A stretch of DNA of 62,262 nt, counting the filler, from Sphacelaria rigidula (taxonomy: Eukaryota): the NCBI GenBank assembly GCA_964200075.2. It is 4 parts of 4 records of this genome, joined end to end, with 100 filler letters (N's around TTAATTAATTAA, not from the genome) between each part and the next. Parts side by side here need not be neighbours in the genome. Positions count along the whole stretch, not along the records: positions 1 to 15,495 come from CAXNAA020001724.1; 3 more parts are not named here. The stretch is one strand, 5' to 3'. The notes below the pieces were generated by a model, which searched no databases, was not told where the DNA came from, and saw only the letters and a list, made by a program, of their open reading frames with translations. The first letter of the stretch is position 1. Each line of letters begins with the position of its first letter. The position numbers were made by a program, and so were the translations under genes. Below are positions 1 to 31,429 of this stretch, piece after piece.

Positions 1-281
1 ACCGATACAAGCATTTTCAAGAAATAGAAAAAAATAAAAAACAAAAAAAAAAAAAAAAAAAAAAAAAACGAATTCTGAAAACGTCTGATGCTGACAACCA
101 GAGGACTGTACGCTCAGGGAAAGGATGACGAGTGATATCAGGTTTTTGGCCCCCATGCGAACAGATGCGTGGAGAGGCCCTCGGAAGGTGAGAGGGTACT
201 ACTCACCGACTAGATACATATGAGTGACTGAGGGGTTTTTCATCCACTAGTGATCATCGGTATCTTTGCATATTTCACGAG

Positions 282-480
282 CTGATTGATTGATTGAGTG
301 TCGCACTTTAACTGACCACTCATGGGTCCAGCCGTGGTCGTACGTTAGACCTACTCATGAAAAGCAAGACTGAAACACTCGTTCAAGAAAACAAAGGAGC
401 AGAAAGAAGTCGAACAGAACTACATAGTAGACCAAGACGTGAAAAAAAAAAAGGGCCGTGTCGTAAAAAGCCGCGTTGAC
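282..480 (-). mobile_element. 3' end of non-LTR retroelement/SINE with (AATC)n tail
   Basis: The reverse complement ends GGGTCAGTTAAAGTGCGACACTCAATCAATCAATC, matching the termini at about 1705-1783 and 31676-31718; pyrimidine-rich body. Confidence 0.6.
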
Positions 481-1172
481 TACCGATTGGATTCTGTACC
501 GGGGGGGGGTTGATTTGGCGCTCGGATGTCCCTTCGCCTTTACTCGTCGTTATGCGAGTATTACGAGACGCTCATCCAGTGTGTCCGTATTGACGCACGG
601 AATCAGGAAGCAGATTCTTTAGAGGGGTGCTCATCGTCATCCATGCGGGATGCTATTGTAGTACTCATCCGTGAGGGGTGGAATGTTGTGGTATGCCATA
701 TACACAAACTCTGGAGTTTGGTCGGTTGATCTCCGTAGGCTGAGTGTGTCCACATCTTCAAGGCACGTCAATTTTTTCCACTGCTGGCTCACGCACACTA
801 TGCTGCGATACTGTGTGCTTCGCTCTCACCCTCCTTTCTTTCTGTTGTAAACTGTGAACTGGACACCTCCTCTTCATTGGTGATACGTCATCAGCTGCGT
901 CCATCTCTGATGCGCTTTTCATTTGATTGATGGGCTACGAACACTCAAAACATCACAAAAGACCCAAGTCTGGTGCCATCAACTTGCCTGGCGATCGTAC
1001 ACAAATAGAAGGCAAGGGAAACCAACCTCAAGCGACACGCACATCAAACTTCGGGCCTCGGAAAAAAACTTTTTGTGCTGTAGGTACGTATTACTCAACC
1101 TCATTTTTCTATTTGAATATCCTCGATGGTTAACTTACTCGCGGCTAAGCTCTTACCGAGCACAAGACTCAC

Positions 1173-1742
1173 ATGTCCTTGGGCGGGAAGTTCTCGATCA
1201 GCCAGGGCTTTCCCTTGAAGATGTCTGGCATCGCAACGTTGAAACCCGCGTTTGCGAGAGTATCACATACCTGAATAGAACACATGTGACCATCATACGT
1301 GGAACACGAACGGGTTATTAAATGACTCCGTCACTTGAGATACCTCGATTTATTCATATACCAAGGCTTTACTCTCCCCTTCTTCCACTGTTGTGTAGAT
1401 CGCGCGGTACGTCTTTGTTTTCCAAGACTGGGTATGAATGCGGTCCTCCGCAAGACCTTTTCCGCCCAAGTCATACAGCAGAGATCGGCCATTTATTTCG
1501 TTTCGTTTCGTTTCGTTTTCTTCCATTTCTCTTCTTTTTTTGTTATTTTCTCTTGTCCTTATACATTCACTTTCTTTATCACGTCTTTGTCGGCTATGTT
1601 CTTCCACATTTACTGTTCTTTTTCTTCAGCGAATGCTTCACTTTTGCCTTGTCTCGGGTACGTCTTATCATGTGGATAATAACCACCACTGGATCATGAC
1701 TCCTGCAGGGTCAGCTGAAGTTCGACAATCAATCAATCAATT

Positions 1743-1785
<43 letters not shown>

Positions 1786-2762
1786 TACCAAAGAATTGTG
1801 CCTGAAACAACAAACAAAAACGGCGACACATGAGCAAGAAACATACGGTGCCTGTTATGGGAAGCACAAGTCATGTCGGAGAAACACAACACGGTGTCCG
1901 CAATTTTCACGAGTGACGACTGTTAGCTCAAATACCGTCTACGCGGCAGACGGAGATGTGCAACCTTCCGTACCCACGGCACCATTTCCAAGACGCTGCG
2001 TCCAATGTGTCGCGTCTACCACACACCCTACTGCATACTGTTGGTGCTTGAAGATGTTCTTGGCAGCCAGCGACACAGCCCCGCTGTCCTGCAATGCGGC
2101 AGTGTCTACGGGACATGTCACACCACAATACTGCCCGCAGGAAAGGGGTATCATGCTAGAGCTTCGTATGTTTCTCCATTTTTCTGGGACGAGATATATC
2201 TCACCTGCTTCGTTTGGGTACTGAATCCGAAGATGTCGTAGACCACGATCAAGGTCTTCGGTCCGGAACCTAAAAAAACAAAAACACGGTCACATAGAGG
2301 TCAGCCGCTGTCACCGGACGTGTTCGGCAAGGAGCGCCAAACCAGCACGAGAGCAATAAAATAAAATGACCCCTGTGCAGTATCCCTAGACATGACAGGA
2401 AAGACTGGTACCTTACATCATTCGGTATTATGAAGCAAACATGTTCATTCCGCTTTGATCTACTGTAGTACAAACACAATTAACTTGGTAGCATGTCCCC
2501 GTTTGCTCAGCTTTTTGTGATGAACGGAGGAACACCGTCTCGACGTAGAACCTGCAACTGGAGAAAGTCGAAATGGTTCGACAGCGAACCACCTCTGCAC
2601 GCAACATAGCACCCATATCCTACGGAGCGCTTGCTCTTCTCGTATCTCGGCTCAGGCATGCCAAAACCGAAGCAAATTCTGACTCACCGATGAAGTAGGT
2701 GTCCACATCACCAACCTTGGATACCGTTCCTTTCGGTGTGTAATCGCTTGACACAGGGGGTC
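1173..2762 (-). CDS. Dienelactone hydrolase family (alpha/beta hydrolase) protein, partial, 3 exons
   Basis: GT-AG exons 2688-2762, 2205-2269 and 1173-1270 join in phase to GPPVSSDYTPKGTVSKVGDVDTYFIGSGPKTLIVVYDIFGFSTQTKQVCDTLANAGFNVAMPDIFKGKPWLIENFPPKD. The YTPKG, DIFG and GFxVxMPDxFxG motifs are typical of eukaryotic DLH/AIM2/CMBL-like enzymes. First exon not identified; the exon carrying the GxCxG nucleophile was not found and probably lies beyond the left edge. Confidence 0.88.
1430..1783 (+). mobile_element. 3' end of non-LTR retroelement/SINE with (AATC)n tail, inside a DLH intron
   Basis: T-rich body, then GGGTCAGCTGAAGTTCGACAATC and about 14 AATC units (1727-1783). Related termini at 282-330, 31676-31718, about 33365-33390 and about 36915-36950. 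Confidence 0.65.
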
Positions 2763-4403
2763 CTGATGTTGCAAGTCCCGTTACATTGCGGTGGGAAGGG
2801 CGTCAACAACATATCACCGAGCAGGTGACCATCAGCTGATTGTTAACGTTTTTGCTGCGAACGAAAAGAAATTGGACCGCGGATGGATCACTGATGAACC
2901 ACTCAACTTGGGCATCGGAAACGACTGAGTTCAACCCTCTTAGCGCACGGGTTTGGAATGACACGTCGGGCAGTTGGACATGGTCTTGACTGAGGGCCAT
3001 TTGCTTCTTTGGTGGGACGACAGCGCTTGCATGAAAGGCAGGGGGTTGGGGCTAAAACTCTCGTGCACGCATTCGGCAAAACACAACAACTGCGCCGTTC
3101 GTCTCCGCTGTCACATGCATCGACAACAGCTGGAGTGGAAATACGACGATGGTGGGTGTAGTTGTCATGCCGAGACCAGGGCCTCCAGAACGAACAATAA
3201 AATAGTGTGTGCAAGATGGTCGTGACTCCCGCCTCTCAACCATGCCGGCAAGCTGCGGCAAGCCTATTGGCTAACATCTATATTTGGAGATCTCCCTACA
3301 GCAAGCACACCTACTCGGTGCTCATCTACTGTACGCCTACAGTCCGTTTTATCCCATTCATCTGCATCTCAGGGGTGCCCGTAACCCATCTTCCAAGATA
3401 TAACAGGCCCTTCAAGTTGAGATTCGGTGAATTTGGGGAAGGGAGCGCGCGGGGGGGGTTTGGCCACAGTATACTTTGTGCTACCCTTAGATATAGTTAT
3501 GCTCCAGCATGAGGTCGGCGTGCAGAGTATAGTGGGGGATCCCACCACGATGCGGTTCAAGTCACTTATCCCAAGTCCGATGTGAGACGCAAGAAATTAA
3601 TACATTAATCGAGATACCACCTAGTACTGCAGCTCTTCAAACTTTCACTTCTCGAGTGTCTATTGCCCCGTCCCGGTGGAGGTGGGGAGGGGCTATATCG
3701 CTGTGTATCCTAAATTGTGGACCCCTCTCTTGCCTCCAATCCCCCAACTCGGGGAAAAGGGTTACTAGATTCCTCGAAAGAATGAGCATGGGCTATGTTG
3801 GAATTTGCCCGGTGTCGGGCTATTGCATCCCTGCCAACACACGTCGGTCCGGGGCCGCGGTACTAGGAGCAGGATCAACGCAACACTTTGAACGCCACGG
3901 TGGCTCATATGTTGAATGGATATTATTTCCACCTGATATACTGATATTTTGTATGTACGACGCAAATGGCCTACCCCGGCCGTCAAAACGTCAAGGCGAT
4001 TTATATAGGTTGTCCTGTGCCCAGGGCGCTCCCAATTTCAATTTAATTCGGTGTAAGTGACGTTGCGATCTTGGACTGCGGCGGTGAAACCGGAGTGGTC
4101 TCGGCTGAGCCCTTGTTAGAAGTGGCTGTAAAATGAATGTTTGCCGCAGGCACCCGGGGTATGGTGATGTGTCGTTGCACGGCAGCGTAAAGTTGTATGG
4201 AAGCAGAAACGTGTTCGTGTTATCGTTGTCGCCCTACATTCGCAAGGACCGGCAGCAAGCCGGCGCTGAGACGCGAGCCGTGTCCCGGCAAATTCCCGCT
4301 AGGTCGTCCCGCACTAGTCCCAGCCACTACCATACCTGTTTTCAAGTATAAGTACAGGACTTGCTTCCCAGTATGCCATAGACTGCAAGTTAAAAACTGC
4401 TGT

Positions 4404-4669
4404 CAGCCGGGACGGAGCACACCGGGTTTTCGCCGGACAAGGCTCGCACCCGATCACCACGCGCGAAGCGCCGTCATGTGCTCGGCGAGTCGCATGAAGG
4501 GTGAGCTGCATCCAGCTAAAGATTGTTCGACCCGAAGCCTACTGATTATTTTGCATCTGGATAACAACCTACAGTGAGTTGCTTTTTTTCTGGTATCGCC
4601 ACTCCCAGAGACAGCCATGGCTTATACACTGCCTCATGGGTGTCTCACCAGAAGTGGAGGGGGGGGAGG
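4404..4669 (-). mobile_element. C-tract-associated structured interspersed element, long copy, 3'-truncated
   Basis: The reverse complement aligns with 61885-62080 and 46782-46920; C-run at its 5' junction (G-run 4656-4669 on the plus strand). Confidence 0.8.
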
Positions 4670-4753
4670 CTGGGTACCCTATTTGAGGAGGGGTCCCCCC
4701 TGATCGATGGATGATGGCAATAGTAGTTGCTGTGTGTGCGCGCATCGGTATTC

Positions 4754-5209
4754 GACCCACCCTTGTACTAACGAATCTCGATTTGTACAAATATGAGGAT
4801 TTCAATCCATCTACAGGCGGTATTCTCCCGTGGATTGATTTTTCGGGCCCCAGTCCGTCGGGCAATGTTTTTCGGCTAGCTGTCAACAAATCAGATCAGT
4901 TCGCCCATTCTCTGAGCGTTGACTTTCGATACATCACCTTTCTGCTGAAATCGGGACACTCCCGCATCTCCCCCGATTATTTCAAGAAAATCGGGGGAGA
5001 TGCGGGAGTGTCCCGATTCGGGCGGAAAGGTGGTGACCAAAAGTCAACGAGAGAATCGGAGAGTTGATCTGGTTTGCTCACAGGTAGCCGGAAAACATTC
5101 TCCAACGGACTGGGGTCCAAGAAAATCAATCCACGGGGAAAATCGCCTGTAGACGGGCTGAAATCCTCATATCTGTACAAATCAATATTTGTTGCCATAA
5201 AAGTGGGTC
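4754..5209. mobile_element. Foldback MITE, probably PIF/Harbinger (Tourist-like)
   Basis: Near-complete imperfect palindrome GACCCAC...GTGGGTC with centre near 4982 (GGGACACTCCCGCATCTCCCCCGATT / AATCGGGGGAGATGCGGGAGTGTCCC); flanks TTC and TTA. Confidence 0.8.
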
Positions 5210-5212
5210 TTA

Positions 5213-5651
5213 GGCCGGATGTTATGGCAAAAAGATTTTTGGCCCACGGATTATTCACTTTTGGGACGTTTGAGCCACTTTTTGACCCCCAAACAGGGAA
5301 AATCGCAAACACACGCGTCGGGCACTTTGCATCACCTCACAGAGAGGAGCCTGGTCTGCTTTTCAGATTCGCTTGGCTCCGAGGTTTCGAGATTGGCCGC
5401 TCAAGAATAATTTGTGTGCAAAAATCTGTGCTTGCAGACCCTAACCAGTTTGCCCGATAACCAGTGGAGATCGCCGCAGATGTTGCAGACGGATTATCTA
5501 AATAGGGGTCTAGGCCCCTATCTGTGGGGTGATGCAGAGTGTCCAAGACGTGTGTTGGCGACTTTCCTTGTTTGGGGGTCAAAAGGTGGCTCAAACGTCC
5601 CAAAAGTGAACAATGCGCGGGCCAAGAATCTGTGTGCCATAACATCCGGCC
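5213..5651. mobile_element. PIF/Harbinger-type MITE with about 140-bp TIRs and TTA target duplication
   Basis: GGCCGGATGTTATGGCA ... TGCCATAACATCCGGCC, with TTA at 5210-5212 and 5652-5654. Confidence 0.88.
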
Positions 5652-6275
5652 TTAGAACACACATCCATGTACAGTACACAACATATGCTGCTTACTGCTG
5701 TGATCGACGCTGCGTACCAACAGCAGCGTGACGCTTTGAGCGGTACTACCTGCTCATTGCAGAGCGGCAGGGTGACAAAGCACACCGCAGAACGTCACAC
5801 CCTTGGCCTATCCCTGCCCTGTATCCATTTCGCGCTGTCCTATGTAGTTCCGCCACATCATGAACGCAGCCGCTTGGACCTACGGCCAATGTGTACGCGG
5901 GATATCACCTCTTGCTACGTGCTATATCGCTACGCCACATTTTTCAAAGCTGTCCGTGTTGCAGCTACAGCGTGCGTTTGTAGCATTCCACACCGTGATC
6001 GCACTGACTACAGAAGTGCTTGTCTAGTGTCTGGTACATTTCCACATGCGTGTAGCGTTACTCAGTGATATCATGAGAAAATCCGCAACATCTGGGCGAA
6101 CTGCAGGTGAGGCAATCGCCAAAAGATTACCAGCAAACTCTGCTCCAGTGCGGTCTAAGTTGATATCGCTGGAAGGACGCCACCATAACCACCTTGCCGG
6201 CTGCCAGACTGGAAGGACCTACGATCCGCTGGCATTGCTACTGTCTGTACGGAGATGGTGCCCCCTTGTCGGGCA

Positions 6276-6424
6276 GTGCTCCGTCTCGAAAGGGATGCGT
6301 GGTCAATGGTCAGACGACCAAGGCAAGCAACAAATGAGTACGCCCCCCCCCGGGAGGGGAGGGCGGGCTATTTTGCGCGAAGCACCGGAACCACCAAATA
6401 CGTACCCCCCCCCCCCCCCCCCCC
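6276..6424 (+). mobile_element. C-tailed structured short element with 15-bp flanking duplication
   Basis: GTGCTCCGTCTCGAAAGGGATGCGTGGTCAATGGTCAGACGACCAAGGCAAGCAACAAATGAGTACG+C9, then 53 nt and C20; CCCCCTTGTCGGGCA at 6261-6275 and 6420-6434. Confidence 0.85.
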
Positions 6425-8259
6425 TTGTCGGGCACGTGGGGAAGGGTCCGTGGCAGAACGCAATGGTCGCGTCAAGGAGCTGCATGCTAGGCGTTCTCAC
6501 TCAAGACTTCGATTTGCAGCAGATTCGATGGGCAGTACCAACTGCTGTGTCTCCAAGTGCCACTTGGAGCAAGATACGTTTGGTTTCTGTTTGACAAAGT
6601 TTTCTCCCCAAAAACGAAATCAAAAGGGGTCTTAGAGTGGGGAAAGTATAGCAAAAATCGAGTCGCAAAAAACGGTTAGCCGAATTTTTTACTCGGAGCA
6701 GAAACCAAGTTCACTGAGTGAAATTGGAAATTCCTCCGCCTCTTACGTTGGAGTACCTATGGGCAAAACGTTGCCTGGGTGCAACCGTGCTAGTGAGGAT
6801 AGTATAGTCGGGTTTGTTATAAACATGAAAACGAAGACGAAGCTAGAGAAGAAAAAAAAAACGAGGTTCTATTCCTTTACCTAAAATGGGTTAAAATATA
6901 CCCCATGTTGGCCTATTTTGGGAATATTTTTTACAATGTTTTTTATTATGTTTTCGAGAATTTTCGAAAAATTCTCGAAAGCGTCAAAATTTAGGACCCC
7001 ACCTGCCCACTACACCATTCTAGTGATAGACTCGCCCCCCAGCACTCCACCACCTCGCAAAGCGGGGCGCCGAGATATCGGGTGGTGACGGCTACTCAAT
7101 GGCGGTAGAGATTGCGATGGTCATGCAGTCCCGTGGGAAAGGCGTGAATTACGGCGACTCTCGGGCCGACTGATTTTTTTCGGCCGTTCGGCCGCATGGT
7201 TCAGGCACCGGCTGAAAAAAAAACATGCTTTTTACTTCGAAAAAACACCGAAGAATTCAACAAAAAAATCGAAGAGCAGCTCGGGCACGGTTGAGCACCC
7301 GTACAAATTTAGATACCCTAACTTATGAGACAGAGGAAGTAGAGGCGCTCAATATAGACAGCCCGAAAAAACGTGATGGTCTGTACACAAGACTTTGGAA
7401 AAGCCGAAAGCTCGGTTGAACCCCAAATACGTACGCGTGATTGGCGTGAACCTCCCGATGATGTAATCAACCCTAACATAGGTGCGGTGAAGGTTAGGGT
7501 GAGTGATAGATGTTTTTGATTGATTGTCGACATTAAGTGATCCCCGAGGGACCCAATCGTGGTGAAAAAAAAAGTACCAAGGATTCCCAGGTTCCTCAGT
7601 ACTTACCACAAGTTTGGCCAGCATGACATACGTCAGGCTTAAGTAGGACGTGGCCCAAGATGATTGACTGGAGGGCAGCAGATATAGGTGCAGTTGGTAG
7701 ATACTGTTATGGGTAGGAATGGGGGCCCTTATGACCAAACATCGACACAAAGTTTGAAATAAAAAATAACGCGGAGTAATAATGAACACGTCAGTAGGTG
7801 GTCGGACCTACGCCGGGGACCTCACGAACAGAACACATGCTCCATCACTCATCAACTTGGTTTAGTATGGGAAAGCTGTAGCACTGGAGATTGCTCTTTT
7901 CTTGACACAGGAAGCAAGCCGGCCAATGGCACTTGACGGCCCCCAGCATACACACAGGATCTAGGGAACCTATCTTGATTTTTTGCTGGCGTCGCGTCAG
8001 CGTCCCGTAAACCCCTCGCCAGAGCGGAATACACCACATTCTAGTGTATTCAAGTCATTTACGAGTCAGTATCACGCGCAAACGCGAAACACAAACTAGG
8101 CGACATAGCTTGCGTGTGTGGGAAGCGCACGCAAGAAACCGCAGTCCAATCCCCCGCTTCGTCGCCGACATACAAGCGTTGCGCGATCGGCACCTTTGGG
8201 TTGAGGATTAGTAGCGTCTTTTGAGATCGAAGATGGCAAATTCAAAAAAATCGGTGCGC

Positions 8260-9312
8260 ATATTTTTTTCTCCTGCCGCAAGCAAGTTGTGACGATACTG
8301 CATGCAGTTTGATTGCGTGCCACAAGTCGCTGCTTTGCTCTGTGCGGCTGTGCACAAAGGACAAATTCGCCTTTTGACAGCGAGTATCCTTCCAAGTGTC
8401 GAATTACAGAGGGGGAGTTCACAGAAGAAAGACAAAGCTGGCGGCTGCTTCGTGTTAGGGCTCCAGTGCAAAAGCCAAGGCGTCGAGAGTAGTTTTAGTA
8501 TGTGGACCGCCTTACATCTGCTTGCGACTGCGGTCATGTATTTAGTAACTGTCTGTACATAATATTACAATAATAATAGAAGAATGAGATGCAAACTATG
8601 CGACGTTCGACAAGCTTCGTTTTAGGCTGCGTGTTTTTTTTGTTGCGGCGAGCAGTGTGTGACGACATTTCACTTTGTAGCGTGCCACCAGGTGCTGCTT
8701 CGTTCTGTACGGCTGTGCACAAAGGGCAAATCCGCATTTCAACAGCGAGTATCCTTCATGTGTTGAGTTGCAGAGGGCGAGGTCACACATGAACTTCGGC
8801 GGTTGTGTCTGAGGGTTCCAGCGGAGAAGCCAAGGCGCCAAGAGTGATTTTTATTTTAGACTGCGCACCATGTACGCCCAGGTCGGCAGAGCCACCATGT
8901 TCCAAGTGACTGCCTGTACATACTGAAAATAATATGCAAACCATGCGATTTGCGCTGACTTGCATCTTCGATCAAATGCTATTTTTCGGCATAGATCAAT
9001 GTCATGATATTTGCTTCGGTGGCGGTCCGCCATGTGCTGCTCTGTTCTGTGGGGATGTGCACAAAGGACAACCTCACGTATCATGAGCGAATACCCTTTT
9101 ATCCCTTGACTTGGAGAGGACGAGTTCACAGATGAAACACGGCTGTCTTGTAGCAGACGGTTTCGCGGCAGAACCCAAGGCGGTGGAGCGATTTTTATTT
9201 TCGTTGACGCACTGGCCATGCTTGACCGTATCGGCAGAGCAACGATGTTTTACGTGACTGCCTGATCATATTGCAAAAAACATCTGAGCTATGCGGCTTT
9301 AGCCAACTTGCT
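8260..9312. repeat. Three diverged tandem copies of a roughly 350-bp unit
   Basis: Anchor TGTGCACAAAGG at 8349, 8714 and 9056 (periods 365 and 342), with collinear AGCGA(G/A)TA, CCAAGGCG and G(T/A)ACTG(T/C)CTG blocks. Confidence 0.8.
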
Positions 9313-10669
9313 GTTTAAACGGGACAGTACACAGGCGTGAGGAGCGCAATCAGTTACCAACCAGTTCACCTCATTTGAGGAGCGTCGCCCCCTCCCGTAT
9401 CACCATCCATCCCATCTCTGCCGGCCTCGAAATTATTTGTCGTCACGTTTGTCCAACTTCGTCCCTTGCGAGATTTTGAAATTAGGGGAAAATTGACGTT
9501 GAATATGTTGATCTGGACAGAGTGGACCAGACTGTGCCCAAGCGACTGACAAGATGGGATTCCTTCCACTCATGCCTTGACCTTGACTTCATGGGGCCCA
9601 CGAAAAATTCACTCTCCAATCCCGCAGTCACAGCTGTGTGTGTAGGACATGCAGCGCGCAGCCAATCCGCACAGCGTAAACCTCTTGATCGTCAACATCA
9701 ACATCGTTCTCAGTAGTATTCGCATGCGCGACACTGCTGCTCATGATCTCAAAATTTCGGTACTTTCTCGTTCTAGCACTATGTCAGGCACGCCTTTCAC
9801 TGCAGTTACGTTGGTGTGTGGCGGCCACAACAGCTGCTGTTCGTGTTCCTGCCTTGCTATCTTCGCACTGACGATAAACGTGGGGTGGAAGCTCGGGGGC
9901 GTGTGCTTCCCGAGTGGTACAGACAGAAGCAAGACACTAGCAAGTGCAACAAGATTGTCCATCTACTGATGCGCAGCGAGCTTTCTGGAGGAACGATATC
10001 ACCTGAACACCGACCACTCCCAGGCTTGAATAAATCTACTAGAAATATAGTTCATTTCATATGAGCCTTATCCTTATTTATAAGTGACGCGTGTATTTTC
10101 CATTGATATGATTCGTTGGATTACGGGCCACTTCGGACGAATATAGAATTCAGCTTGCACTTTCCAGGAATATAGAACCCAAATCGGCCCCCATTCCTGC
10201 CCATAACTACGGGCTCGGGTCGGGTTGCCCAGCCCATGTCTTTCAGCTGTGTCCACAACCCACACAATACAAAGCGAAGCTCCGACATACCGATGAGGGT
10301 GCACTGTGAGACGTGACGTGCGTACTGACACATCTTCGGTTTTGATACCGTTCATCTTGGTCTTAGAAATAAAAAAAAGAAAGTACAGCGGCAGCAGACA
10401 TATTCAAAGTGTTCCTACATTGCGGGATAAAGGAAGTGGGTCTGTACATGTGCGGTTGCATCGCGAGATGGTGTAAGGAAGTGGGGCTGTATGCACAGTA
10501 ATAGCGAGGGTGCCTACAAATATGTATATCAAACCATCTCCGACCGTCAGTTTTTGGTCTTCTTTCGAGAGGAAACTAAAACACACACACAGTAATACAG
10601 TACCGTGTTTTTTCCTTCGCAAGGCCCCGTCTATACCAAGAGGGGAAATGGAGAATGATCATGACCATT

Positions 10670-10860
10670 CTGTGTGTGTGTGTGTGTGTGTGTGTTGTCG
10701 TCCCGTCTAATCTGGACGCCGGTCTACACCTTTCGATATATGTGAGCGCACCAGCCGGGGTCACACAGGAGGAAGGTCAATACAGGACCTTTTTCTTCTT
10801 TTTTTGTTTTCAGTGTCCCACCTTCCTTCTACGGTGCTTGCCTTTATTTGTTTATCGCGA
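10670..10860 (+). repeat. Interspersed repeat adjoining (TG)n; second copy at 17164-17252
   Basis: TGTTGTCGTCCC..T.TGGACGCCGGTCTA.ACCTTT.G.TATATGTG.GCGCA.CAGCC.GGGTCA is shared by both copies. Confidence 0.75.
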
Positions 10861-11029
10861 GTGGGGTTCAGCAGTCCCTTACCCTCGTCGACCGTCAAGT
10901 CGATTTTTGTGTATCCACGACATGTCACTCTCCACTGTTGGGCATGGTGTGAGAAAAATCCCAGATCGCTCCGAGATTTGCACCCACGACCCACCCGTCA
11001 GAGGGTGTCGAGGTTACCAACTGGGCCGC

Positions 11030-12420
11030 CGGGGTGACCGGATTTTAGGGTTCAAAATTCCATCAACAGAAATCACCTGCTTGTACTGTTTGAGGGCCCG
11101 TTTTCACGAGACCAGAAATGTGGGGACGCGACGTGATACGTACTGACTATGACTGCAGGCTGATTCAGGCATATCACCCGGAAAACACTCATCGGCAAAA
11201 CCTCACGCCGTTTCAAGTAGTTAGACCCTGAAGTTTTGCACAGATGTTCATGGGGCATTACGCAACATTGGAAGATGGAGGTTTTTCGACTTTTTATTTT
11301 TATTTTTTCAACGTTTTTCGGGAGTTCCAGTTTTTTCCGGGGAACAACGATCCAATCGGACCCCCATGAAACGGTAGAGAAACAAAAACTCGAAAAACTT
11401 CGTCCATCCAAAGTTGTGCAATGGCCCATAGCAAAGTTGTGCAAAATTTCAGGGTCTAACTCCTTGAATCGGCGTGAGGTTTTTCGCTTTGTGCGATGGA
11501 CTTTGACGTGCCGCGGTGAAATCGCAAACTACTTGATTTCAGTATGAAAACGGCGTTTTTGGGCCTTCTTTGACGTGGACATGAAAATTCAAGCATCAGC
11601 TGATCGAGTTTTGCGACAAACGTTTGTGGTACTCTTCCTCGGGTTATGCGGGGACAGGTCGCTCATGAAAATATGAAAAAATATATATCGTCGTGCCGGT
11701 TTCCCCGGGTCCCAGAATGGGGACTACTTCGAAAAAACGACTTGGATCCCCGTCGGACCCCCGAAAAACGGTGAAAAACTCAAGACGTGAAAACCATGAT
11801 CCATAGAAATTTGCGCAAAGATACATAGCATATTTGTGCAAAGTCTCAGGATCTAACTCTCCATAACGGCGTAAAAGTTTGGGCGTTTGTGGAGGACGTC
11901 GGCTTGAAACGTGCAACTCCTAACTACTTGGTTTTAGTATGGACGTCTTTCGAGGCGAACTTTACGTCGAGGCAAGAAAAGCTGTATGAGATTTTCGAGT
12001 TTCTCCACCAAACTTTGTACGTGTGTTACTTGGACGATCCCAGGACGCACCACTCTATTATTTTTCTTCTAGGGCATTCTCTACCGCCTTTCGGGGGTCT
12101 TCATGTTTGGACCCGCGGAAGCCGGTAAAGAACGGAGAAACCATGAAATATTATCAATAACACAATTCTTCTGTTTTGAGCATCCATACCTACGGAACTA
12201 CCAAGTTTGAGGGCGATCTGAGCTTTTCTACAACAGATATAGGGGACACCGTCACGAGGCTCCCTGGGTCTTTCGTGCGTATTAGTGGAAATTAGAAGAC
12301 GCCGACACTTGGCATCACCGAAACATCACGGTTTCGGGTATAATTCGACCCCGTAGTAACCGTTTTCAAACATGCTTTTTTCGTTAGATTCCCGAGCCAA
12401 TTATGGTTACTATGATTTGA
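11030..12420. mobile_element. Non-coding DNA-transposon-like arm with internal inverted and direct repeats
   Basis: 11195-11300 is the reverse complement of 11380-11485; a third, direct copy lies at about 11745-11880; no credible ORF. Confidence 0.55.
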
Positions 12421-12506
12421 AGCATGTGGAGATTGGGTGAAAATTGGGCTTGAAATTCGTCATTTCGATCTCGGAACAATTTGACGGGCGCTGATTGGTC
12501 GATATA

Positions 12507-13348
12507 CCGTGAAAGTGCGAGAGATGGCACCGGTCGGGAAGATGGTACCGGGGTGCGCAAAAAAAAGTGGAAATGGCATGATTTAATTGTATTTTCGCAC
12601 CGGGGTCGGTAACATCACACCGGGGCGCGATCTTACCGACCCGGAACCCAACTTTGAGGGTTCCGCGGGTGGAGCAGGGCCGCTCAAGAGCTGCTGCATG
12701 TACACACATGAGTACTTTTCACGTGTGTAGTGTTGTCAAAATGTTGTCGGGGCAACACTGCTTTGCGTATGGTCACGGTCCAAGCAGGATGATGTCTGTT
12801 ATTTTCGTTTAATCCGCATGGAGAATCGCTCATTCCGTCCGAGCAAAGTACGGTACACACCCAAATGAAGCAGCCAACATTGCTTTACCTTCACGCCATA
12901 TCCAGACTAGCACTGAACACCTACCGGTATACAGCAGATGGCCTTTGTGCTATGGTGATCTACGGCAAGCTAGTGCGAGCTACTACGTTCCAGACCCCTT
13001 TCCCGTGATCCCTTCGAGCCAGCAACAAAGGTACCTAGATACCAATGATGCGCCCACCGCACAAACCAAAGTACGCTGCTCTCTACGGATGATCTTCTGT
13101 ATTCTCAACTAGCGATCTTTCACAACTCAATGCCTCCTTCGTCCCCATCCCCCAACACGCCCAAGTATGTAGGCCACGGTTTGCATTTGTTTGGGCATCG
13201 CACCGGTCGGAGAGATGGCACCGGAGTGCGTTGAATAATCCAGAAATAATCATTTAATTGTATTTTGGCACCGGGGTGCGAAAAAAAATCCGAGAAAAAA
13301 CATTTAAAAAATCGATCGCACCCGGTGCCATCTCTCGCACTTTTACGG
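12507..13348. mobile_element. Tc1/mariner-superfamily (pogo-like) non-autonomous element with TA duplication
   Basis: TA-CCGTGAAAGTGCGAGAGATGGCACCGG ... CCGGTGCCATCTCTCGCACTTTTACGG-TA (27-bp TIR, 1 mismatch) with repeated subterminal GCACCGG motifs. Confidence 0.88.
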
Positions 13349-13439
13349 TACCTTCTCGCCCTTAGCGCAACCACTATGACCTTACACTCAAATCCGGCTC
13401 TGTCAGGCTCTTCACCTGCCCATGGCGGTCAGCATGATA

Positions 13440-14240
13440 TCATGAATGCGACTATTGGGTAGGTAGTGCGAAAGGCATTTGCTGATGACACAATTTTGGG
13501 TGATGAGCGTGAACCAGCCTGTATCGGGAGTTTTTTTTTGTGATTCCGGTTGGTTTTGAGTTGATGGCAGATTCTCATCTTCTCCTAAATCACTATCAAG
13601 AACATTCATTATTAACCCTTTTGGGACCGGACCTCCAGAACGGCCAATGAAGCTGGTCAGGAATGACGTGTCTGGCGTTTGCACGAAACAGTGGCGTCTT
13701 GCTGAAAATCCGCGTATGTAAGCGCACGGTTATTGCGAAGACCGAAAGTTCCTATCTATTTTCAGGTGCAGGGTGCGCATTAGGTGGTGTACATCCAATG
13801 TAGCAAGCAGTATGGGTTGTGGTAAAGAGCTTCCAACAGGATGAGGAGACCGGCGGGCCGNNNNNNNNNNGGCTTTGGATGATACTTTTGTCCCCATCAC
13901 CTCGCCACACAGCCCTTTATGGTCGGGGTGGGCCGCCATTTCCCCCCTTGTTGCATGCGGCAAATTCTCTTCGAACGGCATTAGCGTGGCGGCGCGCATG
14001 CATACAACAGCATAGAACAGTACAGTGCAGTCTAGTACGCCTCTCCAACTGAAGCAGTAGCTGCCGCTGCATACTCCCTTGCACGTTCTGGGCAATATTC
14101 TCAGCTACCGAAATCAGCTGCCTATATACAGCTTTGTCATCCCCGTCCACAACATACATGTGGACTGCACACTGCAAGTCATCCGCAAAGGGACACGCAG
14201 AAGTCAATGGCGGTAGCTCCTGTTGTCTTTCCACAGCCCA
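13440..14240 (-). pseudogene. Possible degenerate KDZ-type transposase fragment
   Basis: A frameshifted reading gives ...GLLILL...RNNRALHTRIFSKTPLFRANARHVIPDQLHWPFWRSGPKG...INS, resembling by eye the KDZ YDNxCxL...RxP...DxxHW...NS series. Contains stops, frameshifts and a 10-N gap. Confidence 0.4.
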
Positions 14241-15495
14241 CCTGGATTTTGTGCCTCATGAAAATAACCTCACGGTGGCATGTACACTACTTCCCGGTTA
14301 TTTCCGGTCCACCCTGTGTAAGTGTAAATTACTACGTTTCAGTATAGAAGAAAGTACCGTATTAGGCCCACCTCAAGCCACCCCTGACGCCAGTGGCTGG
14401 TTTGTCGGTAGTGTTTCGACTTAAACCGACATTTTGGTATCCAATGATAACTTGGACTCCTCTCCAACACTCCAAAAAAGAAAAGAAAAAAAGAGTGATA
14501 CGGAGAGGCGGTAGCGGCTCTGCGGTTCATGGTTCCTCCGCACAGAAAAGTCTGAAAGAACGACTGCTGTCCTATTAAGCACATTTTTGCGTATTATGCG
14601 ATTACCTGCGTTCTGGCACGTATCAAAACCCAATACTTGGTGTGCACATAATGTGTGTACTTGACACCACTACCGAAAAAAAAAGCACACTCATGCCCAT
14701 ATCCGGGGACAAAAAACACACATCCCCGGGGTTCAGGACCGTTGAGTTCGGGGCAATTTTCGTGAATTTTTACTTCATGCGTGCCCCGTGCACGGCAGGC
14801 GACGCAAAATCAACAGTTTGATGCATTGATTGACTACTGTGTGGACATGTGAAGGCTCCCGAAAGAAAATCATGGGTTTTGGTGCCAGCTTGCTCACTTT
14901 ATGGGGGTTCAAACATGGGCACACGCTCCTGATTTCGCCTGCGCCACACGTGGAAGCAATATAAAAATATCTTGTCGGGTCAAAACTGCTGTAGGACCGA
15001 CTGCTGTACCCTTTTTACAACCGCTCTTCAGGTGACGAGTGCTGTACAGCGCTAAAACAGCCTTCTCAGCCGCGTAGGTATCATGTGCTTGCTCCTGTCA
15101 GTGCATCGGGCCGCCTGGGCCACGCTCAAGTCTACATGTGTCACATTTTGCCTCGTCCTTATTAGCAGCACGATCGAGACCAAACCAACATCAGCCTGCA
15201 CGGCAAGACCCAGTGATTGTGACTGCCGTAGCTCGTGAGTGACGAGGTCGATCGGCACGCTGAAGAGCGCAAACGAAAGCTGGAGATGTAGTCTCACCGT
15301 TGCGAACGAAAAAAAGAGGAGCTCCATGTAGTGAGCGTCATTTTGTAAACGTTTTTCCCGAAGTGTGCGTAATATGGCACTGGGCCTAATAAGGCACTTT
15401 CCTTTAGAATTGGGACCCAAAAAACACTCCGGAAAAACTCGGGAACGGTATACTGACTGCAAGTAATGCCATAAAACCAAGCCGCGACCACCCTG

Positions 15496-15595
15496 NNNNN
15501 NNNNNNNNNNNNNNNNNNNNNNNNNNNNNNNNNNNNNNNTTAATTAATTAANNNNNNNNNNNNNNNNNNNNNNNNNNNNNNNNNNNNNNNNNNNN
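15496..15595. other. Artificial assembly spacer (N44-TTAATTAATTAA-N44)
   Basis: 100-bp N run with a palindromic six-frame-stop linker, identical to the other two spacers. Confidence 0.97.
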
Positions 15596-17163
15596 AAAAA
15601 TATGTTGATAGTTGATAGTTGCTGCGGCATGAACAACATGATATTAGCTGGGTGTTGAAGTGTAATCCTGTCATGAGAGTGTGCATTGCGTAATGACAAC
15701 CGTTCACACCCGCCGCAGCCCATGCGCAGGAACACAGTGCATCCGGGTAGATAACGACATTTGGATGCTCGGAGTACTCTACACGGCCCGTATACCCGCA
15801 AGTAGGAAAACTTGTGAAATCACACCATCATCGTACTACAAGTGCCGTTGTCTGCTGGCTGCTGTGCGGACTGTACACTATACACAGCGGGCAACAGACG
15901 ACAGCAGTACAGAAGTACTACTGTACAGGGCCTATAGTACTCTGAACAGTTGACAAGTGATGCAATACAGGACCACTCCCGCTACTCGTGCTGCCACGTG
16001 GATAGCCTGCACAGTACACAGACACAGTGTGCAGAGAGCGTGGTGCCTTGTATAACAGCAGTGCAACAACAGTATGTATGGCGGTACTCCCGATGGCAAG
16101 CAGTTGATGCATACTGTATAGAGTCCGTGTCGTCAGAGCATCCATACAATCAAGCATGCGCGGTGCTTGGCTGACCAAGAACACAAGACGATTGTTTGCT
16201 CGTCATTATCAAGCAGAGAGTTTATCGCCGCAGGCGTGCGGTCCTCTGCCCTACCACAAGATGCTTTCTTTACTGCCCTGCTGTGGATTGCTGTGAAGTG
16301 CACCTGGCCATTGTTTCGTGTGTGCAGCATTTCGACTTGAGTTTGGGTTTATCGTGGGTTGGTTGTGGACACTCATGCAAACAGCATATAATATGAGAAA
16401 TTTCTCGTGCGTGTTATATGACGTGAAAATTTTCCTCCATCTACAGGCAGTCAGTCATGGCTCATATATCAAAGCCGTGTCCACGGTGTCCACGATGTGT
16501 TTCATCAGAAAAATTGACGTCACTGTCTCCACTTTCGATTTTTTCGTGCCTGAATCCTGCCACGAAACATTCGCCGACAAACGGGCAAGATCACCCCTGC
16601 GACACAACAGGCACGGAGGAAGCTATCGGTGTTGATGCGTGGTGTTGGCCGAAGTGCGCTCTCGCACGCAAGATCAACACATCGCCGGCCGTAATGTTAT
16701 CAAGGTTGTACTAAGTCCAATTCACGTCGGAGAACACGTGCTCAAAACTGTAATGTAACGAAGAAAAGCATCGTACATCAACACATATCGGCTGATATCC
16801 CATCCGAACGACGAAAGCACGCTAGACCATAAACATCAGAGTAAGACCATGCTGCGCGCCGCTCACCCCGACTAATGGTACGCAGCCGATCGTCTCTGCC
16901 CATAATCCCATCCCAACCCCCGTCAATGATCTCCTCCTCCTTCCGCTCCGGGCCGTCAGTAGTGTACGCTCCTTTTCCGGTAATCGTCAGTCATCTCCAC
17001 TTTGGGCCGCTGCTGTTGCGGGCATCCGCCTCTTTTCTTTGTTCTTGGGTTTGATGGTGGTATCCTCGCCTCGAAGCTTCCGCTGCAATAGAGCAACACC
17101 CCCCCCCCACATCGGCAGACTACAAGTTGCTGCTGTCTGCTGTGCGATATTTGTATGTACACT

Positions 17164-17252
17164 GTGCGTGTGTTTGTTGTCGTCCCATATATTCTGGACG
17201 CCGGTCTAGACCTTTTGGTATATGTGGGCGCATCAGCCAGGGTCATTCACAC
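17164..17252 (+). repeat. Interspersed repeat, partial copy of 10670-10860
   Basis: Direct sequence similarity to the first 100 bp of the 10670 copy. Confidence 0.7.
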
Positions 17253-18243
17253 AGTAGGTCCGTGTTCAGGTTCCAAAACTAAAAAACACTGCAGAACTGC
17301 CGTGTTGTCTTGTATTTAGGGTGGTAGTCTGTAGTACATATACCACTGCAGAGTTGTCTTGTTTTCAGTGTAGTATCCTGTACTCCATATAATGGGGTCA
17401 TCTTTTGAGCAATTTTTGGAAAAGTTCTGCTTGTTTTTTCAAAAGTTCTCTTTTTTTGTGAAGTATTCGGTTTTTTCTATAAGTATTCCGAAAAAAACGA
17501 GAGTATTTTCTGTCACAGAAATCTAATGCCGAATCTGGAATAGCCTGAGACAACAACCAATTGGGAAATTGGAAAATCGGAAAATTGGAATTCAGGACTT
17601 AGCCATGAGAGAGCTTGCCCTACACATGAAAGGCCTTGATTAATTACGGCTTAATTTTTCTGCATTTCAGCTGCTAAAGAGCACGTGTGTTTCCGCGTAC
17701 GCGTAGAAAGACACCAAAATACCACGGAGGTGCACAATGCAGCTTTAAGATATGTATACACAGCCGCGAAACGAGGGTCATGCTCTGGGAAACATTGTGG
17801 ACGCGACCAGTCCCTGGGGGGGTGCACCATCTGGACTTTGACAATGGCAATTCATCTGTGGATTAGGTTGGGCCAGAGGGTAGGGCCAAACTCAGCCTCT
17901 AATGAGCGGAGGACTCGTGAGTATAGATATATAGGGACAGTCTGCCCGGAATAACACAGGCGAACAGTAAAAAATATTTCATGCGTACTCGGAATATCTG
18001 CCTGAGCTCAAACGATTTCAACTTTGTTGTGAAAAGTTTTACACAGCTAAAGGGACCATCACACATCGATATTCCCGGGATGTGAAATGGCACCACCGCA
18101 CCCGTCAACACCCGAAATTCTCAGCTAGGTTGTGAACTCTATACCCAAAGAATAAAAACACATATGCATGCTGGCCCCCCAGATGCCAACGGGCAATGGA
18201 ACCACTCAGGTACACCTTTGGTGTACTATATACATGTAAAACC

Positions 18244-21200
18244 TCAAGCATCTGCACCATGGGCAGAACTTCGCCATGACCCGTCGCACTCGTCCTTTCC
18301 ATTCCCTGTTTTTCTCACTTGGCGCGGAGAATGCGTAGAGCATGATTCTTGCCCACCTCGTTGAAGAGCATGTACTGTTTCGCGAGCGGACATAACATGA
18401 AATTGGGACATGGTAAGCTGGCGGGAGTAGCTCGATTTGGTACACATCAGGACTACTCATCATACCAAATCGCAGCTGCTACCTTGTGCAAGCAGCATTT
18501 AAAACGTTTCTCCCACCTGCGGCAAATGAGTAGATGCGCATGATGCCAATACAGTAGACTGTAAAAAGCGAAAGCTTGGAAAAAATAAAGGGGTGCGCAA
18601 ATTCAATCGGATTGAAATGGATACAAAAATAGCACAGCAACGAACCATGTCAGGCACTTGGATTAATTATAATTAGTACCCAGCTGATAACCCAACACTT
18701 GCTGACACACCGAACCTTCAACAAATCTTCTCAAGTTCCATGAGGTACAAGAGTACAGTGCTGCACACCCTGGACAATATGTGGTCAATAGATGCAATAG
18801 GTCTATACTCATTCCGGTACATTTTTGGTCTATTGAATATATTTACCATATTCTGTCCATGGCGTGCCGTGCAGCAACATCCTTGACAAAATCATACTCT
18901 CATAAATCCACACAGACAACTGCACGCATACAGCAACAAAAGTGCTTTCGCTGCGTCATGACAACTTCAGAATCGCACCTGGTTTTCCCTGCTGACAAAT
19001 AGATCCCTCTCGATCATCTCGAAGTGTTTGGAGCTACTTGTGTGCACGTTAGTTTCATGGACTTCGCCTGTGGATCGCCTACCGGCGGGGGAACCAATAT
19101 ATTCTCCACGCGAAGGTCTGAGCTCCTCTAGAGACTTTGATCCCGTCGCGCCGTCCTTCGGCAACCGAGACAAAGCCATGCGTTCGAAGAGTGCGGAAAT
19201 GCTTTGTGTGCATACGACAATACAAGGTCGAGAACGTTTCCTTCAAGACTAAGGGTGAAATTCCCTGTCTCTGCTGCTTCCGAAACTGGCTGGCAAAATA
19301 AGGATAAAAGTGAAGACACTATTCGCAATGGTGCACATGTGCCAGCAACAAAGAGCACGCAGAGCTTATTACACTACGTGACAGGTCGCAACATACCTTC
19401 TCGAAAAACGAACAGTAGAGATCCATGCTTTCAATCGTCGTCAACGGACTGCTCATCGCTTCTAACGCCTCCTTTCTCAGGATTTCCTCCAACCGGGCTT
19501 TCTCTTGCTCTTCCTGCCTCAGCATGAAGCAAGCAAATTATCAGGTGACGTTGCGGCACGCCACGTCAAAACGTTGAACACGAGACGGACTTCGTTCCGA
19601 ATTCCAAAGCTTTCACGACAAATCGAGAGTATTTACGGCGTGCCGTGTTTGTTGCATTCACCATGTGATGATACGTACACACCCTGGACAAAGGATTGCA
19701 TTGTCAAAAAGTGTACTGCGTACAGTATGGAATTTATCGTCTATTCGAATGGACGCAATACTCGACACTGTGCGCAGCAGACTTTTTGACAATGTAATCT
19801 ATTGTCAATCGTCCAGTGTGCGAAGTACTGTTTCACTTCAGCAGGGTAGACGGGATTAAACTGCATGAAGACGGCCATACAGTTTTTCTCATTTCAGAAG
19901 AAATAAAATGCTCGGAGCGTCAACCCATTGGCAAAAATGCGCGACGAAAGAATGTTGAGCCAAGGATCATGACTTGTCAAGGCCCAGCATTTTGTCAATC
20001 GCGCTCGCGCCGGTACTTGATCTCCTGCCAAATTTGTCATCGCCATTCAGAGAAAAGCCAAAAATGAAGTATAAGCAGAGCAAGTCGAGGTTCCATCTTC
20101 ACTTCGATGGGTCCTCGACCCATAATATGTATCAATACTCGAGAGACTCATGACGTATGGGGCATAGTAGCCTGCTCGCAAGTGTCCAGCATGCTGAGTC
20201 ACGCAGTGCCTTACGTGGTCTAGTTGATCCACGATCTGGTTGACCACGCCGTCCACGTTAATGCCTGCGTCTTGCATCAAGTGGCGGATGAGCTGCCACT
20301 CCTCTTCCAAGTTCAGGTCGCGTTGAGCTGCCCATCCTAGCTGCTGGACGTGCAGAACCACAGCTGACGCGACTCTCCTGGCCGAGATTTCCTGCGGACA
20401 GTATTTTCTTTGGGTGCTCATCAACAGTACGCAGATTCGAAGGATTTTCGTCTTTGATGTAGACGGCTACATTCACGTCTGAGAACCACGTTGTAAGGGA
20501 TTCGAACGATTTCGAGCAATGAATGGTGCGGGAGGCATCGTGACTACAAGAAGCGCCAAGTGTCAAAGTCAACAGCAACATGAACAACGTGATGACGTCC
20601 CAAAAAACTATGCAGAAATCAGTCGAGTAACTTCCTGGCCGGCTGCAACATTCATACTCACACTAGGGTGCTGCGGATTATCGTGGCAACAGCATTTGTC
20701 GCTATATTAGGCAACAAAGGTGTTTCACGTTCAAGCAAGAGAAAGTGGATCGACGCTACTGAAAAATACTGAAACGAGCGACCCGGCTAGATCTTCTTTC
20801 AGCGTTGAGCGTTGAGTGTGGAGCGTGGAGATAGTGCAGGTATCACACACATGCGGGGCTGCCAAACTCCAACATATCAGACTTCATCGATCACCTTTCG
20901 TAGCCCCTCGTATGGTGTACATGCGATGGTTGCACCACAGTGGTGCTCTTCCGCCAACTTCTGGACAGACAAGGCCCCCGCTGCCGTGTCTGTTGCAATA
21001 TTGAAGTCTGCCAGGTACGAAGAGGGCTCCGCTTTACTCGCCTGGATCAAACACGCGACGAATAAAGGGTGTAAAATTATCATGCGGTAACAAGGGTGCA
21101 AAATTATCATGCGGTGACACTTACCGAACACAGTGGTGGGACGGAGATGGCGTGATCCCTTGTGACCACGGACTCGTCCCGAGGAAGGGGAGACTATACG

Positions 21201-31089: not shown

Positions 31090-31189
31090 NNNNNNNNNNN
31101 NNNNNNNNNNNNNNNNNNNNNNNNNNNNNNNNNTTAATTAATTAANNNNNNNNNNNNNNNNNNNNNNNNNNNNNNNNNNNNNNNNNNNN
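31090..31189. other. Artificial assembly spacer (N44-TTAATTAATTAA-N44)
   Basis: Same 100-bp linker. Confidence 0.97.
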
Positions 31190-31306
31190 CGCGCGTGGTG
31201 GTTGAGTCCGAGCCTGGTCCGGTGAAAACCCGGCGTGCTCCGTCCCGGCTGTGTAGGGATGCGAGGTCAATGGTCTCATGACTATGACATGCATGATGAT
31301 GAGTAC
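31190..31306 (+). mobile_element. Structured interspersed element (subfamily B), cut by scaffold start
   Basis: GAGCCTGGTCCGGTGAAAACCCGGCGTGCTCCGTCCCGGCTGTGTAGGGATGCGAGGTCAATGGTCTCATGACTA...GAGTAC matches 62041-62137. Confidence 0.8.
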
Positions 31307-31429
31307 AGCAACTGCAAACACACCAAATTCGGGCTCATAACGCTTTTTGTGCGTGGTACTGGGGCTGAGAGATACGCCATCCTTTTTAACCGGAGTTTCC
31401 TCTAGGTGTATGCAAGCCGGAGCTTGGTA

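Follow-up and report, generated by a model that had tools for sequence, protein, structure and literature searches.

What kind of element ends in a run of cytosines and is bordered on both sides by the same 15 bp? This question is raised by an insert at positions 6276-6419 of a stretch of Sphacelaria rigidula DNA of 62,262 bases (the window), which consists of four whole contigs of ~15.49 kb each (1-15495, 15596-31089, 31190-46681 and 46782-62262), separated by spacers of the form N44-TTAATTAATTAA-N44 at 15496-15595, 31090-31189 and 46682-46781, with a G+C content of ~49%. An earlier note on this DNA had proposed that the insert belongs to a C-tailed element family that was inserted by target-primed reverse transcription. 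Our analysis indicates, with considerable confidence, that the insert is a retroposed, extremely 5'-truncated and C-tailed copy of an autonomous brown-algal retrotransposon without long terminal repeats (non-LTR), i.e., a long interspersed nuclear element (LINE).

Two exact copies of the 15-mer CCCCCTTGTCGGGCA are present in the window and bracket the 144-nt insert, as had been noted earlier; no third match was found in the window with up to two mismatches allowed (0.18 matches were expected in shuffled sequences). The C run at the end of the insert comprises 20 C (6405-6424), the final five of which are shared with the second 15-mer. An unbiased scan of all C runs of at least six for an upstream repeat of "CCC + 9 nt" recovered this duplication and a C-rich pair around a related copy at 38884, and displaced-flank controls of the same scan yielded 0-1 matches. 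The insert begins with a module that is shared by the family (68-74 nt, GTGCTC...GAGTAC). In this copy the module includes the last 19 codons of a LINE protein described below (6278-6334), a TGA stop codon (6335-6337) and GTACG (6338-6342), and it is followed directly by a C9 run. Since this C9 is located inside the duplicated borders, the element brings along a C run that is not target DNA alone. If the insertion reading is true, the pre-insertion allele would read ...GGTGCCCCCTTGTCGGGCACGTGG....

An autonomous partner encoding both reverse transcriptase (RT) and endonuclease, which had been anticipated for this family, was found on three public contigs, L046, L085 and L119. Public metagenome contigs were scanned with an 18-nt degenerate core motif and the 118 resulting loci were screened by a module profile; two of these loci, L046 and L085, carry the module, and the other 116 were chance matches. 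A pattern scan of the genome_contigs collection gave 76 loci, of which L174, located on the same contig as L119, was the sole real one, the rest being chance matches in prokaryotic contigs. No module copies were detected by the pattern scan of viral_contigs, and none besides L119's own was detected in the bin containing L119.

The minus-strand open reading frame (ORF) 697-4455 of L046 encodes a protein of 1253 aa (P0118), which ends in the module and contains Exo_endo_phos (residues 64-285, E = 3.1e-11), Exo_endo_phos_2 (173-308) and RVT_1 (634-883, E = 7.7e-33) domains as well as a C-terminal Cys/His knuckle. The same element, with 95% amino acid identity, is present on L119, a contig filed under a bacterial bin, where the ORF at 999-5147 (1382 codons from stop to stop) is the sole long ORF on the element strand; L085 carries the end of the same LINE ORF. 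The TGA stop codon lies inside the module (...AAATGAGTAC) and is followed by GTACG and then by C8 (L046), C11GC5 (L085) or C12 (L119), the same position as that of the C9 run at 6343-6351. Five bases separate the stop codon from the tail on L119, and because the C run directly follows GTACG, the element has almost no 3' untranslated region (UTR). A tblastn search with P0118 against the window gave matches at 6278-6334 and 32826-32882 (residues 1235-1253, 95%) and at 38862-38942 (from residue 1227). The 6276 insert thus corresponds to the last ~67 nt of an autonomous LINE encoding endonuclease and RT. At 470-520 (minus strand) of L119, ~500 bp upstream of the LINE ORF, we also observed a degenerate inverted module copy with a C-rich string ~40 nt past its end, which probably represents an earlier insertion with reversed orientation.

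Several traits by which LINEs are recognized were found in this family: an RT domain, an apurinic-type endonuclease N-terminal to the RT, absence of terminal repeats, variable 5' truncation, and target-site duplications of variable length. The family maps to the 3' end of a LINE, and the earlier proposal of a retroelement, as opposed to the terminus of a DNA transposon or LTR element, held. RTE-type elements have a single ORF encoding endonuclease and RT, almost no 3' UTR and a simple-repeat tail. RTE-like traits of the present element are its single long ORF (L119), its very short 3' UTR and its simple-repeat tail. Unnamed Ectocarpus proteins match P0118 at 47-71% identity. As the link to a clade rests on this protein identity and on the LINE clades listed for Ectocarpus, assignment to RTE or RTE-X would be a lead and not a result.

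Both the sequence between the C9 and C20 runs and its origin bear on how many events built the insert. For these 53 nt (6352-6404), no significant match was obtained in the window or on L046, L085 and L119; they start with GGGAGGGGAGGGCGGG, a string that in reverse complement resembles a C-rich tail. They could represent a nested second C-tailed insertion, a 3' transduction of the source flank, or a template switch. We regard it as about an even chance that two events are recorded here, namely that an unrelated C-tailed RNA (the 53 nt) landed in the first tail or that flanking sequence of the source was transduced, either of which is compatible with a truncated LINE copy. Two C runs with unmatched sequence between them would be expected of such a history, a head-to-tail pair of copies at 42596 and 42662 shows landing beside older tails, and the 53-nt segment ends in 14 nt (CCACCAAATACGTA) that by eye show a loose resemblance to the LINE end. 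However, no second duplication can be distinguished from the C runs, and the G-rich, inverted start of the 53 nt is predicted by neither version.

The insertion of a truncated LINE copy at 6276 is one case of a dispersed family. Nine copies on three of the four contigs were found concordantly by self-BLAST, nhmmer and a covariance model (filters off), and the nine members listed in the earlier note were all real by these methods. Seven copies bear the module (6276, 38884, 31235, 42662, 42596, which is 5'-truncated, and 62066 on the plus strand, and 32884 on the minus strand), and two minus-strand copies (4405-4597 and 46786-46901) are fragments of a longer form. Self-BLAST revealed neither inverted nor long terminal repeats around the copies, and their 5' extent varies. 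The coordinates are listed in the table below.

Features of the C-tailed family in the window (CM, covariance model; nt, nucleotides)
Positions	Strand	Feature	Basis
6261-6275	+	5' copy of the target-site duplication CCCCCTTGTCGGGCA	exact repeat of 6420-6434
6276-6342	+	LINE 3' module, subfamily A, GTGCTC...GAGTACG, 67 nt	CM R1 98.7 bits; tblastn; fold; covariation
6343-6351	+	C9 run directly 3' of the module, within the duplication-bounded insert	
6352-6404	.	53 nt without match, G-rich start GGGAGGGGAGGGCGGG	
6405-6419	+	terminal C tail outside the duplication (15 C)	
6420-6434	+	3' copy of the target-site duplication CCCCCTTGTCGGGCA	
32805-32899	-	second subfamily-A copy; module 32817-32884, tail TC7	CM 98.9 bits; 95% identical to the 6276 copy
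38841-38975	+	third subfamily-A copy; LINE homology from ~38862, module 38884-38951	CM 87.4 bits; tblastn from residue 1227
42596-42745	+	two subfamily-B copies, head to tail	nhmmer; CM
31190-31308	+	subfamily-B copy (31235), truncated by contig start	BLAST, CM
61845-62200	+	longest subfamily-B copy, non-coding, SINE-like	self-BLAST, CM
4405-4666	-	subfamily-B copy with the first 16 nt of the module alone, breakpoint 4404	
46782-46942	-	subfamily-B copy truncated by contig start (46786-46901)	

The copies fall into two subfamilies. Subfamily A includes the 6276, 32884 and 38884 copies together with those of L046, L085 and L119, has a GAAA loop in the second helix of the module, and is preceded by LINE coding sequence. 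Subfamily B (31235, 42662, 42596, 62066, 4405-4597 and 46786-46901) has a 9-nt loop in the second helix, i.e., five more nucleotides than subfamily A, which breaks the reading frame, and its module is preceded by ~230 nt of different sequence, giving a total of ~300 nt. No ORF of at least 110 aa covers the upstream part of subfamily B, no tRNA was detected in its 5' part by ARAGORN, and an Rfam search at E up to 10 on 61800-62262 gave only chance snoRNA-like hits with E >1. Subfamily B is therefore filed here as a non-autonomous element resembling a short interspersed nuclear element (SINE) and not as a SINE, because no 5' head derived from an RNA polymerase III (Pol III) RNA was found; it is a non-autonomous, SINE-like rider on the 3' end of the LINE. 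In the longest subfamily-B copy, BLAST homology starts at 61889, with a weak alignment back to ~61845, and a divergent module (62066-62139) is followed by the tail CCCGCCCCCGCCCCCG + C49 at 62140-62200. The 5'-truncated 42596 copy (42596-42644) ends in the tail AACCCCGCCCGC, and directly behind this C-rich tail lies the 42662 copy, which consists of the module only (42662-42735) and the tail ACTCTCCCC.

The earlier note had described a shared GAGTAC-like 3' end that is usually followed by a C run, and a C run at the 5' junction of most copies. The first description held for nine of 10 copies, in which C4 or longer occurs within 12 nt after the GAGTAC-like end, compared to a background of 2.5%, whereas the 31235 copy has no C run and the 4405-4597 copy lacks the 3' part of the module. 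Nine 3' ends carry the tails C9, TC7GTCCC, C7TC3TC4GC2TC4, ACTCTC4, AAC4GC3GC, C3GC5GC5GC49, C8, C11GC5 and C12, and an A tail was found at none of 10 ends. With respect to the second description, C5 or longer occurs within 25 nt before the 5' junction in six of eight copies (background, 1.5%), the 42662 and 61889 copies being the ones that fail, although the flanking C-run counts were made post hoc and four of the six 5' cases are unambiguous, the other two varying with the placement of the junction. Among these 5' junctions, C8 (4659-4666) is located just upstream of the probable 5' end of the 4405-4597 copy, and C10TC10 (46922-46942 in minus-strand reading) is located at that of the 46786-46901 copy. 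The possibility that C runs are an assembly artefact was rejected, as three independent assemblies show C runs at the same position.

In most LINEs the tail consists of poly(A) or of short repeats rich in A/T. Since relatives of the present element (lineage D, see below) carry an A/T-rich simple-repeat tail at the same position, the C tail is a lineage-specific replacement of such a tail. To our knowledge, no cellular activity adds poly(C) to RNA. Because of this and because the copies lack poly(A), the C run probably has a template; most likely the 3' end of the element itself is copied, with slippage, and the C run is not added to the RNA afterwards.

Distant relatives with other tails provided a comparison. 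A profile of 13 homologs detected 31 loci in genome_contigs, many of them in another eukaryote (lineage D) and with one further lineage represented by L198. A covariance model, built from the six subfamily-A copies, gave 27 matches at E up to 1, in which lineages D and L198 scored 22.5-38 bits with the module at ORF ends. Lineage-D elements share 35-58% amino acid identity, the same domain order and a module overlapping the stop codon, and at the same position they carry (ATT)1-4 or (ATTT)n tails. Three of them (3.0-4.2 kb) are flanked by duplications of 13-18 bp starting with ATT or TA, namely one of 13 bp (or 17 bp if one mismatch is allowed), one of 18 bp (ATTACTACGTACGTACTA) and one of 16 bp (TAGTCACATGCCTAAA). 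The 16-mer flanks a 3-kb LINE copy on L211 and is present as a single copy in an uninterrupted paralogous stretch 550 bp away (positions 5891, 8976 and 9529). These duplications show that the clade inserts with staggered cuts and that the duplication starts with tail-like bases, as would be predicted if the nicked strand paired with the tail of the RNA. By analogy, the C5 + 10 nt at 6261 has the geometry of lineage D with C, and together with the LINE partner this supports the earlier proposal of a C-tailed element inserted by target-primed reverse transcription. The lineage-D contigs (L197-L226, CBDBCZ01..., up to 2.7 Mb) contain many endonuclease and RT LINE copies with target-site duplications; their record is labelled as a Nitrospirales metagenome-assembled genome, yet the contigs are plainly eukaryotic and the record looks mislabelled.

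A different account of the flanking C runs is that the RNA ends in ...GAGTACG, that the endonuclease is specific for existing C:G tracts, and that the C at the borders is duplicated target whose length has since drifted. Several observations are in line with this account, including the flanking C-rich strings of the 38884 copy, which are alike in length and pattern, the counts of C5 and C7 on the two sides of the 32884 copy, the C runs found at 5' junctions, and the abundance of C runs of at least seven away from the family (24 such runs in the window in all). Nevertheless, we consider it improbable, as the C9 run lies within the duplication-bounded insert, the 5' copy of the duplication has C5 and the 3' side C20, C8-C12 occur at exactly the same position in three LINE 3' ends from independent assemblies, one copy has C49, and the relatives have an element-borne (ATT)n at the same position.

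Retroposition of a C-tailed LINE end would depend on recognition of that end, and the module has the properties of a conserved RNA structure. Its plus strand folds with -21.3 kcal/mol (z = -2.3), compared to z = +0.15 for the other strand, into a three-way junction in which an outer helix, GUGCUC/GAGUAC, surrounds two hairpin arms. In an alignment of 22 distinct rows from several lineages, 92.4% of cells pair, compared to 27-46% after displacement of the partners by 1-3 columns. Changes on both sides were seen in nine of 21 pairs, and the observed covariation score was reached in 0 of 500 shuffles, although this alignment was fitted to the model and most of the changes separate a few lineages. 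The C-terminal peptide ...GCVVNG... is also kept in homologs of 38-41% overall identity; since subfamily B retains the nucleotides of the module but not the frame, the constraint most simply acts at the RNA level. We infer that the module is the part recognised by the RT.

Three short copies from the two subfamilies, 6276, 32884 (minus strand) and 42662, all have their 5' end precisely at the base that opens the outer helix. This common 5' start suggests either a source RNA consisting of the module only or a preferred stop of the RT; random truncation would be unlikely to produce it.

The stable three-way junction, its GAAA tetraloop, the covariation and the common start at the outer helix would also fit a dispersed structured-RNA gene of the host or a self-cleaving ribozyme that is not part of a transposon. 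This explanation appears very improbable. Rfam gave no match at the gathering score in the whole window, and searches at E up to 10 on two copies gave none on the module, the region 6200-6480 yielding only chance snoRNA- and miRNA-like hits, the latter from a G-rich/C-run hairpin. Neither a hammerhead core (CUGANGA/GAAA) nor a nested pseudoknot like that of hepatitis delta virus (HDV) was seen in the module by eye, and in every full context the module overlaps the stop codon of the ORF encoding endonuclease and RT.

The earlier note had also raised the alternative that CCCCC + 10 nt is a terminal or tandem repeat belonging to the element, and a related reading would make the family the terminus of an LTR element or DNA transposon; several copies do have CCCCC ~15 nt before GTGCTC, but both readings are refuted almost completely by the 10 nt themselves, which vary by copy (TTGTCGGGCA, GTCCTCCGTA and others) and in the 15-mer are specific to the 6276 copy, by the LINE bases before GTGCTC, which are coding sequence (...AGGAGTAGGAACG) unlike the flanks of the window copies, and by the lack of inverted or long terminal repeats.

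Besides the post hoc counting and the model-fitted alignment mentioned above, several points weigh against insertion of C-tailed LINE copies as the explanation. Because the insert at 6276 is composite, with the unmatched 53 nt between C9 and C20, a single simple insertion event is unproven. The duplication of the 6276 copy is the single clean one in this alga. At the 32884 copy, listed at 32809 in the earlier note, the first 9 nt are indeed repeated after the tail (CCCCCGTCC, at 32891-32899 and 32805-32813), but the repeat comprises 9 nt only, with six extra nucleotides at the 5' junction, and the similar 20-24-mers that flank the 38884 copy (38841-38860 and 38952-38975) are low-complexity C-rich sequence. 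Searches for a duplication at the 42662 and 61889 copies and at L119 found none. The 31235 copy is the sole copy with a 3' end but no C run after it, and the 4405-4597 copy is without the 3' part of the module. Finally, the LINE ORF was read on outside public contigs (L046, L085 and L119) that are not assigned to this alga.

For a C-tailed LINE, the following mechanism is proposed. The LINE protein would recognise the 3' stem-loop of its own RNA and of the parasitic subfamily-B RNA, and its endonuclease would nick the bottom strand at a G run. The freed 3' end of the G run could then anneal to the C run at the RNA terminus and prime cDNA synthesis, with homopolymer slippage giving rise to tails ranging from C4 to C49. 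A cut of the second strand 9-20 bp away would produce a duplication with C as its first bases, and old C tails could serve as new targets, which would result in head-to-tail copies. In this scheme, priming at G tracts, a C-ended RNA, slippage, RNA recognition and a preference for C tracts are steps that we infer.

The earlier note had compared the geometry of the insertion to that of L1/Alu with C in place of A. The comparison was appropriate for the duplication, as both systems have an APE-type (apurinic) endonuclease and RT, frequent 5' truncation, a duplication of ~15 bp starting with the tail base and, presumably in the present case, a nicked strand that anneals to a homopolymer tail. The tail of L1, however, is poly(A) added after transcription, and any RNA with poly(A) can serve, whereas the present copies lack poly(A) and conserve a specific 3' structure that is common to the LINE and a parasite family, so that the relaxed, poly(A)-dependent type does not apply and a pair with a conserved 3' stem-loop is found instead. 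Such a pair is known from eel, where UnaL2 and UnaSINE1, in work said to be that of Kajikawa and Okada in 2002, reportedly share a conserved 3' stem-loop of ~60-70 nt that is recognised by the RT and reportedly have a short repeat tail whose length shifts by slippage at initiation. The present family likewise combines a LINE and a SINE-like partner with a common conserved 3' stem-loop and a short-repeat tail, but differs from UnaL2/UnaSINE1, which has a pentanucleotide tail in the 3' UTR, in its single-base C tail and in the overlap of the stem-loop with the ORF end, as well as in LINE lineage and host kingdom. Compared to lineage D and L198, the brown-algal family has the same module, the same domain order and the same kind of duplication, which in those relatives is 13-18 bp long and tail-like, but has Cn in place of (ATT)n/(ATTT)n.

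Among brown algae, the main text of a 2025 paper, PMC12477816, describes abundant and often 5'-truncated LINEs in Ectocarpus, including RTEX-1/2_Ec32 with the non-autonomous RTEX-N1_Ec32 that shares their 3' end, and reports that abundance is highest for a non-autonomous element of ~600 bp with a 3' end common to RTE-X LINEs and a 5' part of unknown origin. The present family resembles this pair, as presented there, in having a short non-coding family that shares the LINE 3' end and has no identified Pol III head (PMC12477816). The same main text contains nothing on tails or target sites, although its supplements or a figure may show terminal motifs (PMC12477816). The long ORF (up to 1382 aa), the C-terminal Cys/His knuckle and the C homopolymer tail set the present element apart from these LINEs. 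No description of a C-tailed LINE was found in the literature searched, though curated transposable element libraries and the Ectocarpus supplements may already record one, and the accessible parts of the literature on the RTE-X/RTEX clade names give no tail information. The family does not form a new class but represents a stringent LINE/SINE pair of RTE-like type whose tail is a lineage-specific variant; its unusual feature is the homopolymer C tail with matching C-first duplications, the LINE/SINE pair itself being of a known kind.

With regard to the remainder of the window, long ORFs are scarce (three of at least 200 aa). A Pfam search of 65 of the 97 ORFs of at least 110 aa identified a SacI-domain phosphoinositide phosphatase gene alone and no RT. 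This gene has split exons on the minus strand at 26047-29410 (~26-29.4 kb) with introns of 0.3-2 kb, and one exon of 80 aa has a 98% match to a protein named Sphacelaria rigidula and matches of 84-90% to other brown algae; the window is therefore brown-algal nuclear DNA. Three contig ends are located in or beside family copies, the starts 31190 and 46782 being inside copies and the end 62262 being 62 nt past the C49 tail, which is expected if a common repeat breaks the assembly.

Several other observations were made in the window. An RT-coding fragment at 47467-47619 (minus strand), near a C14TC8 tract at 47120-47142, has 51% identity to residues 633-680 of P0118 by tblastn and is a putative remnant of a related LINE. 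The string GCAAA(A)TAG precedes two C-rich runs (46618-46640 and 6368-6386, minus strand) and may mark the 3' end of another C-tailed family, or may occur by chance; CCAAA(T)-like strings precede several other C runs (501-509 and 3451-3458, both in minus-strand reading). A unit of ~250 bp at 39780-40030 has inverted ends, CACTTTCTACGATAC + C9 (39783-39805) and G7 + TTACTGTATCGTAGAAAGTG (40004-40030); it has the look of a small terminal-inverted-repeat element with C:G runs in its ends and bears no relation to the LINE module. Stretches that are 71-85% identical to their own reverse complement (4754-5209, 11197-11483, 19687-19806, 52994-53188 and 55772-55918, and also 5208-5368 with 5496-5656) are long palindromic or hairpin-type repeats unrelated to the C-tailed insert. 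A tRNA-Pro with the anticodon GGG was detected at 34684-34756 by ARAGORN and may be a pseudogene or organelle-derived; this anticodon is unusual for a eukaryotic nuclear tRNA-Pro.

The presence of this family has consequences for the genome that carries it. The family breaks short-read assemblies, as at the three contig ends of the window, disperses long C:G homopolymers in which sequencing errors and replication slippage easily occur, and leaves fragments of 68 nt that are too short for protein-based repeat masking. The occurrence of Cn and (ATT)n tails in one clade, whose close relatives are distinguished by the tail only and have matching duplication starts, constitutes a natural experiment on whether priming of reverse transcription requires pairing of the nicked target with the tail. 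We tentatively suggest, as a possibility somewhat short of even, that a brown-algal LINE lineage swapped an A/T-rich microsatellite tail for a C homopolymer, that it homes to G:C tracts including its own old tails, and that the 68-nt stem-loop plus a C run is a sufficient unit of retrotransposition. If this is true, such a unit would explain the three copies that start at the first base of the outer helix, the pairing of tail and target in target-primed reverse transcription would become testable with a base other than A or T, and the family would seed and expand poly(C)/poly(G) tracts genome-wide in a self-reinforcing manner.

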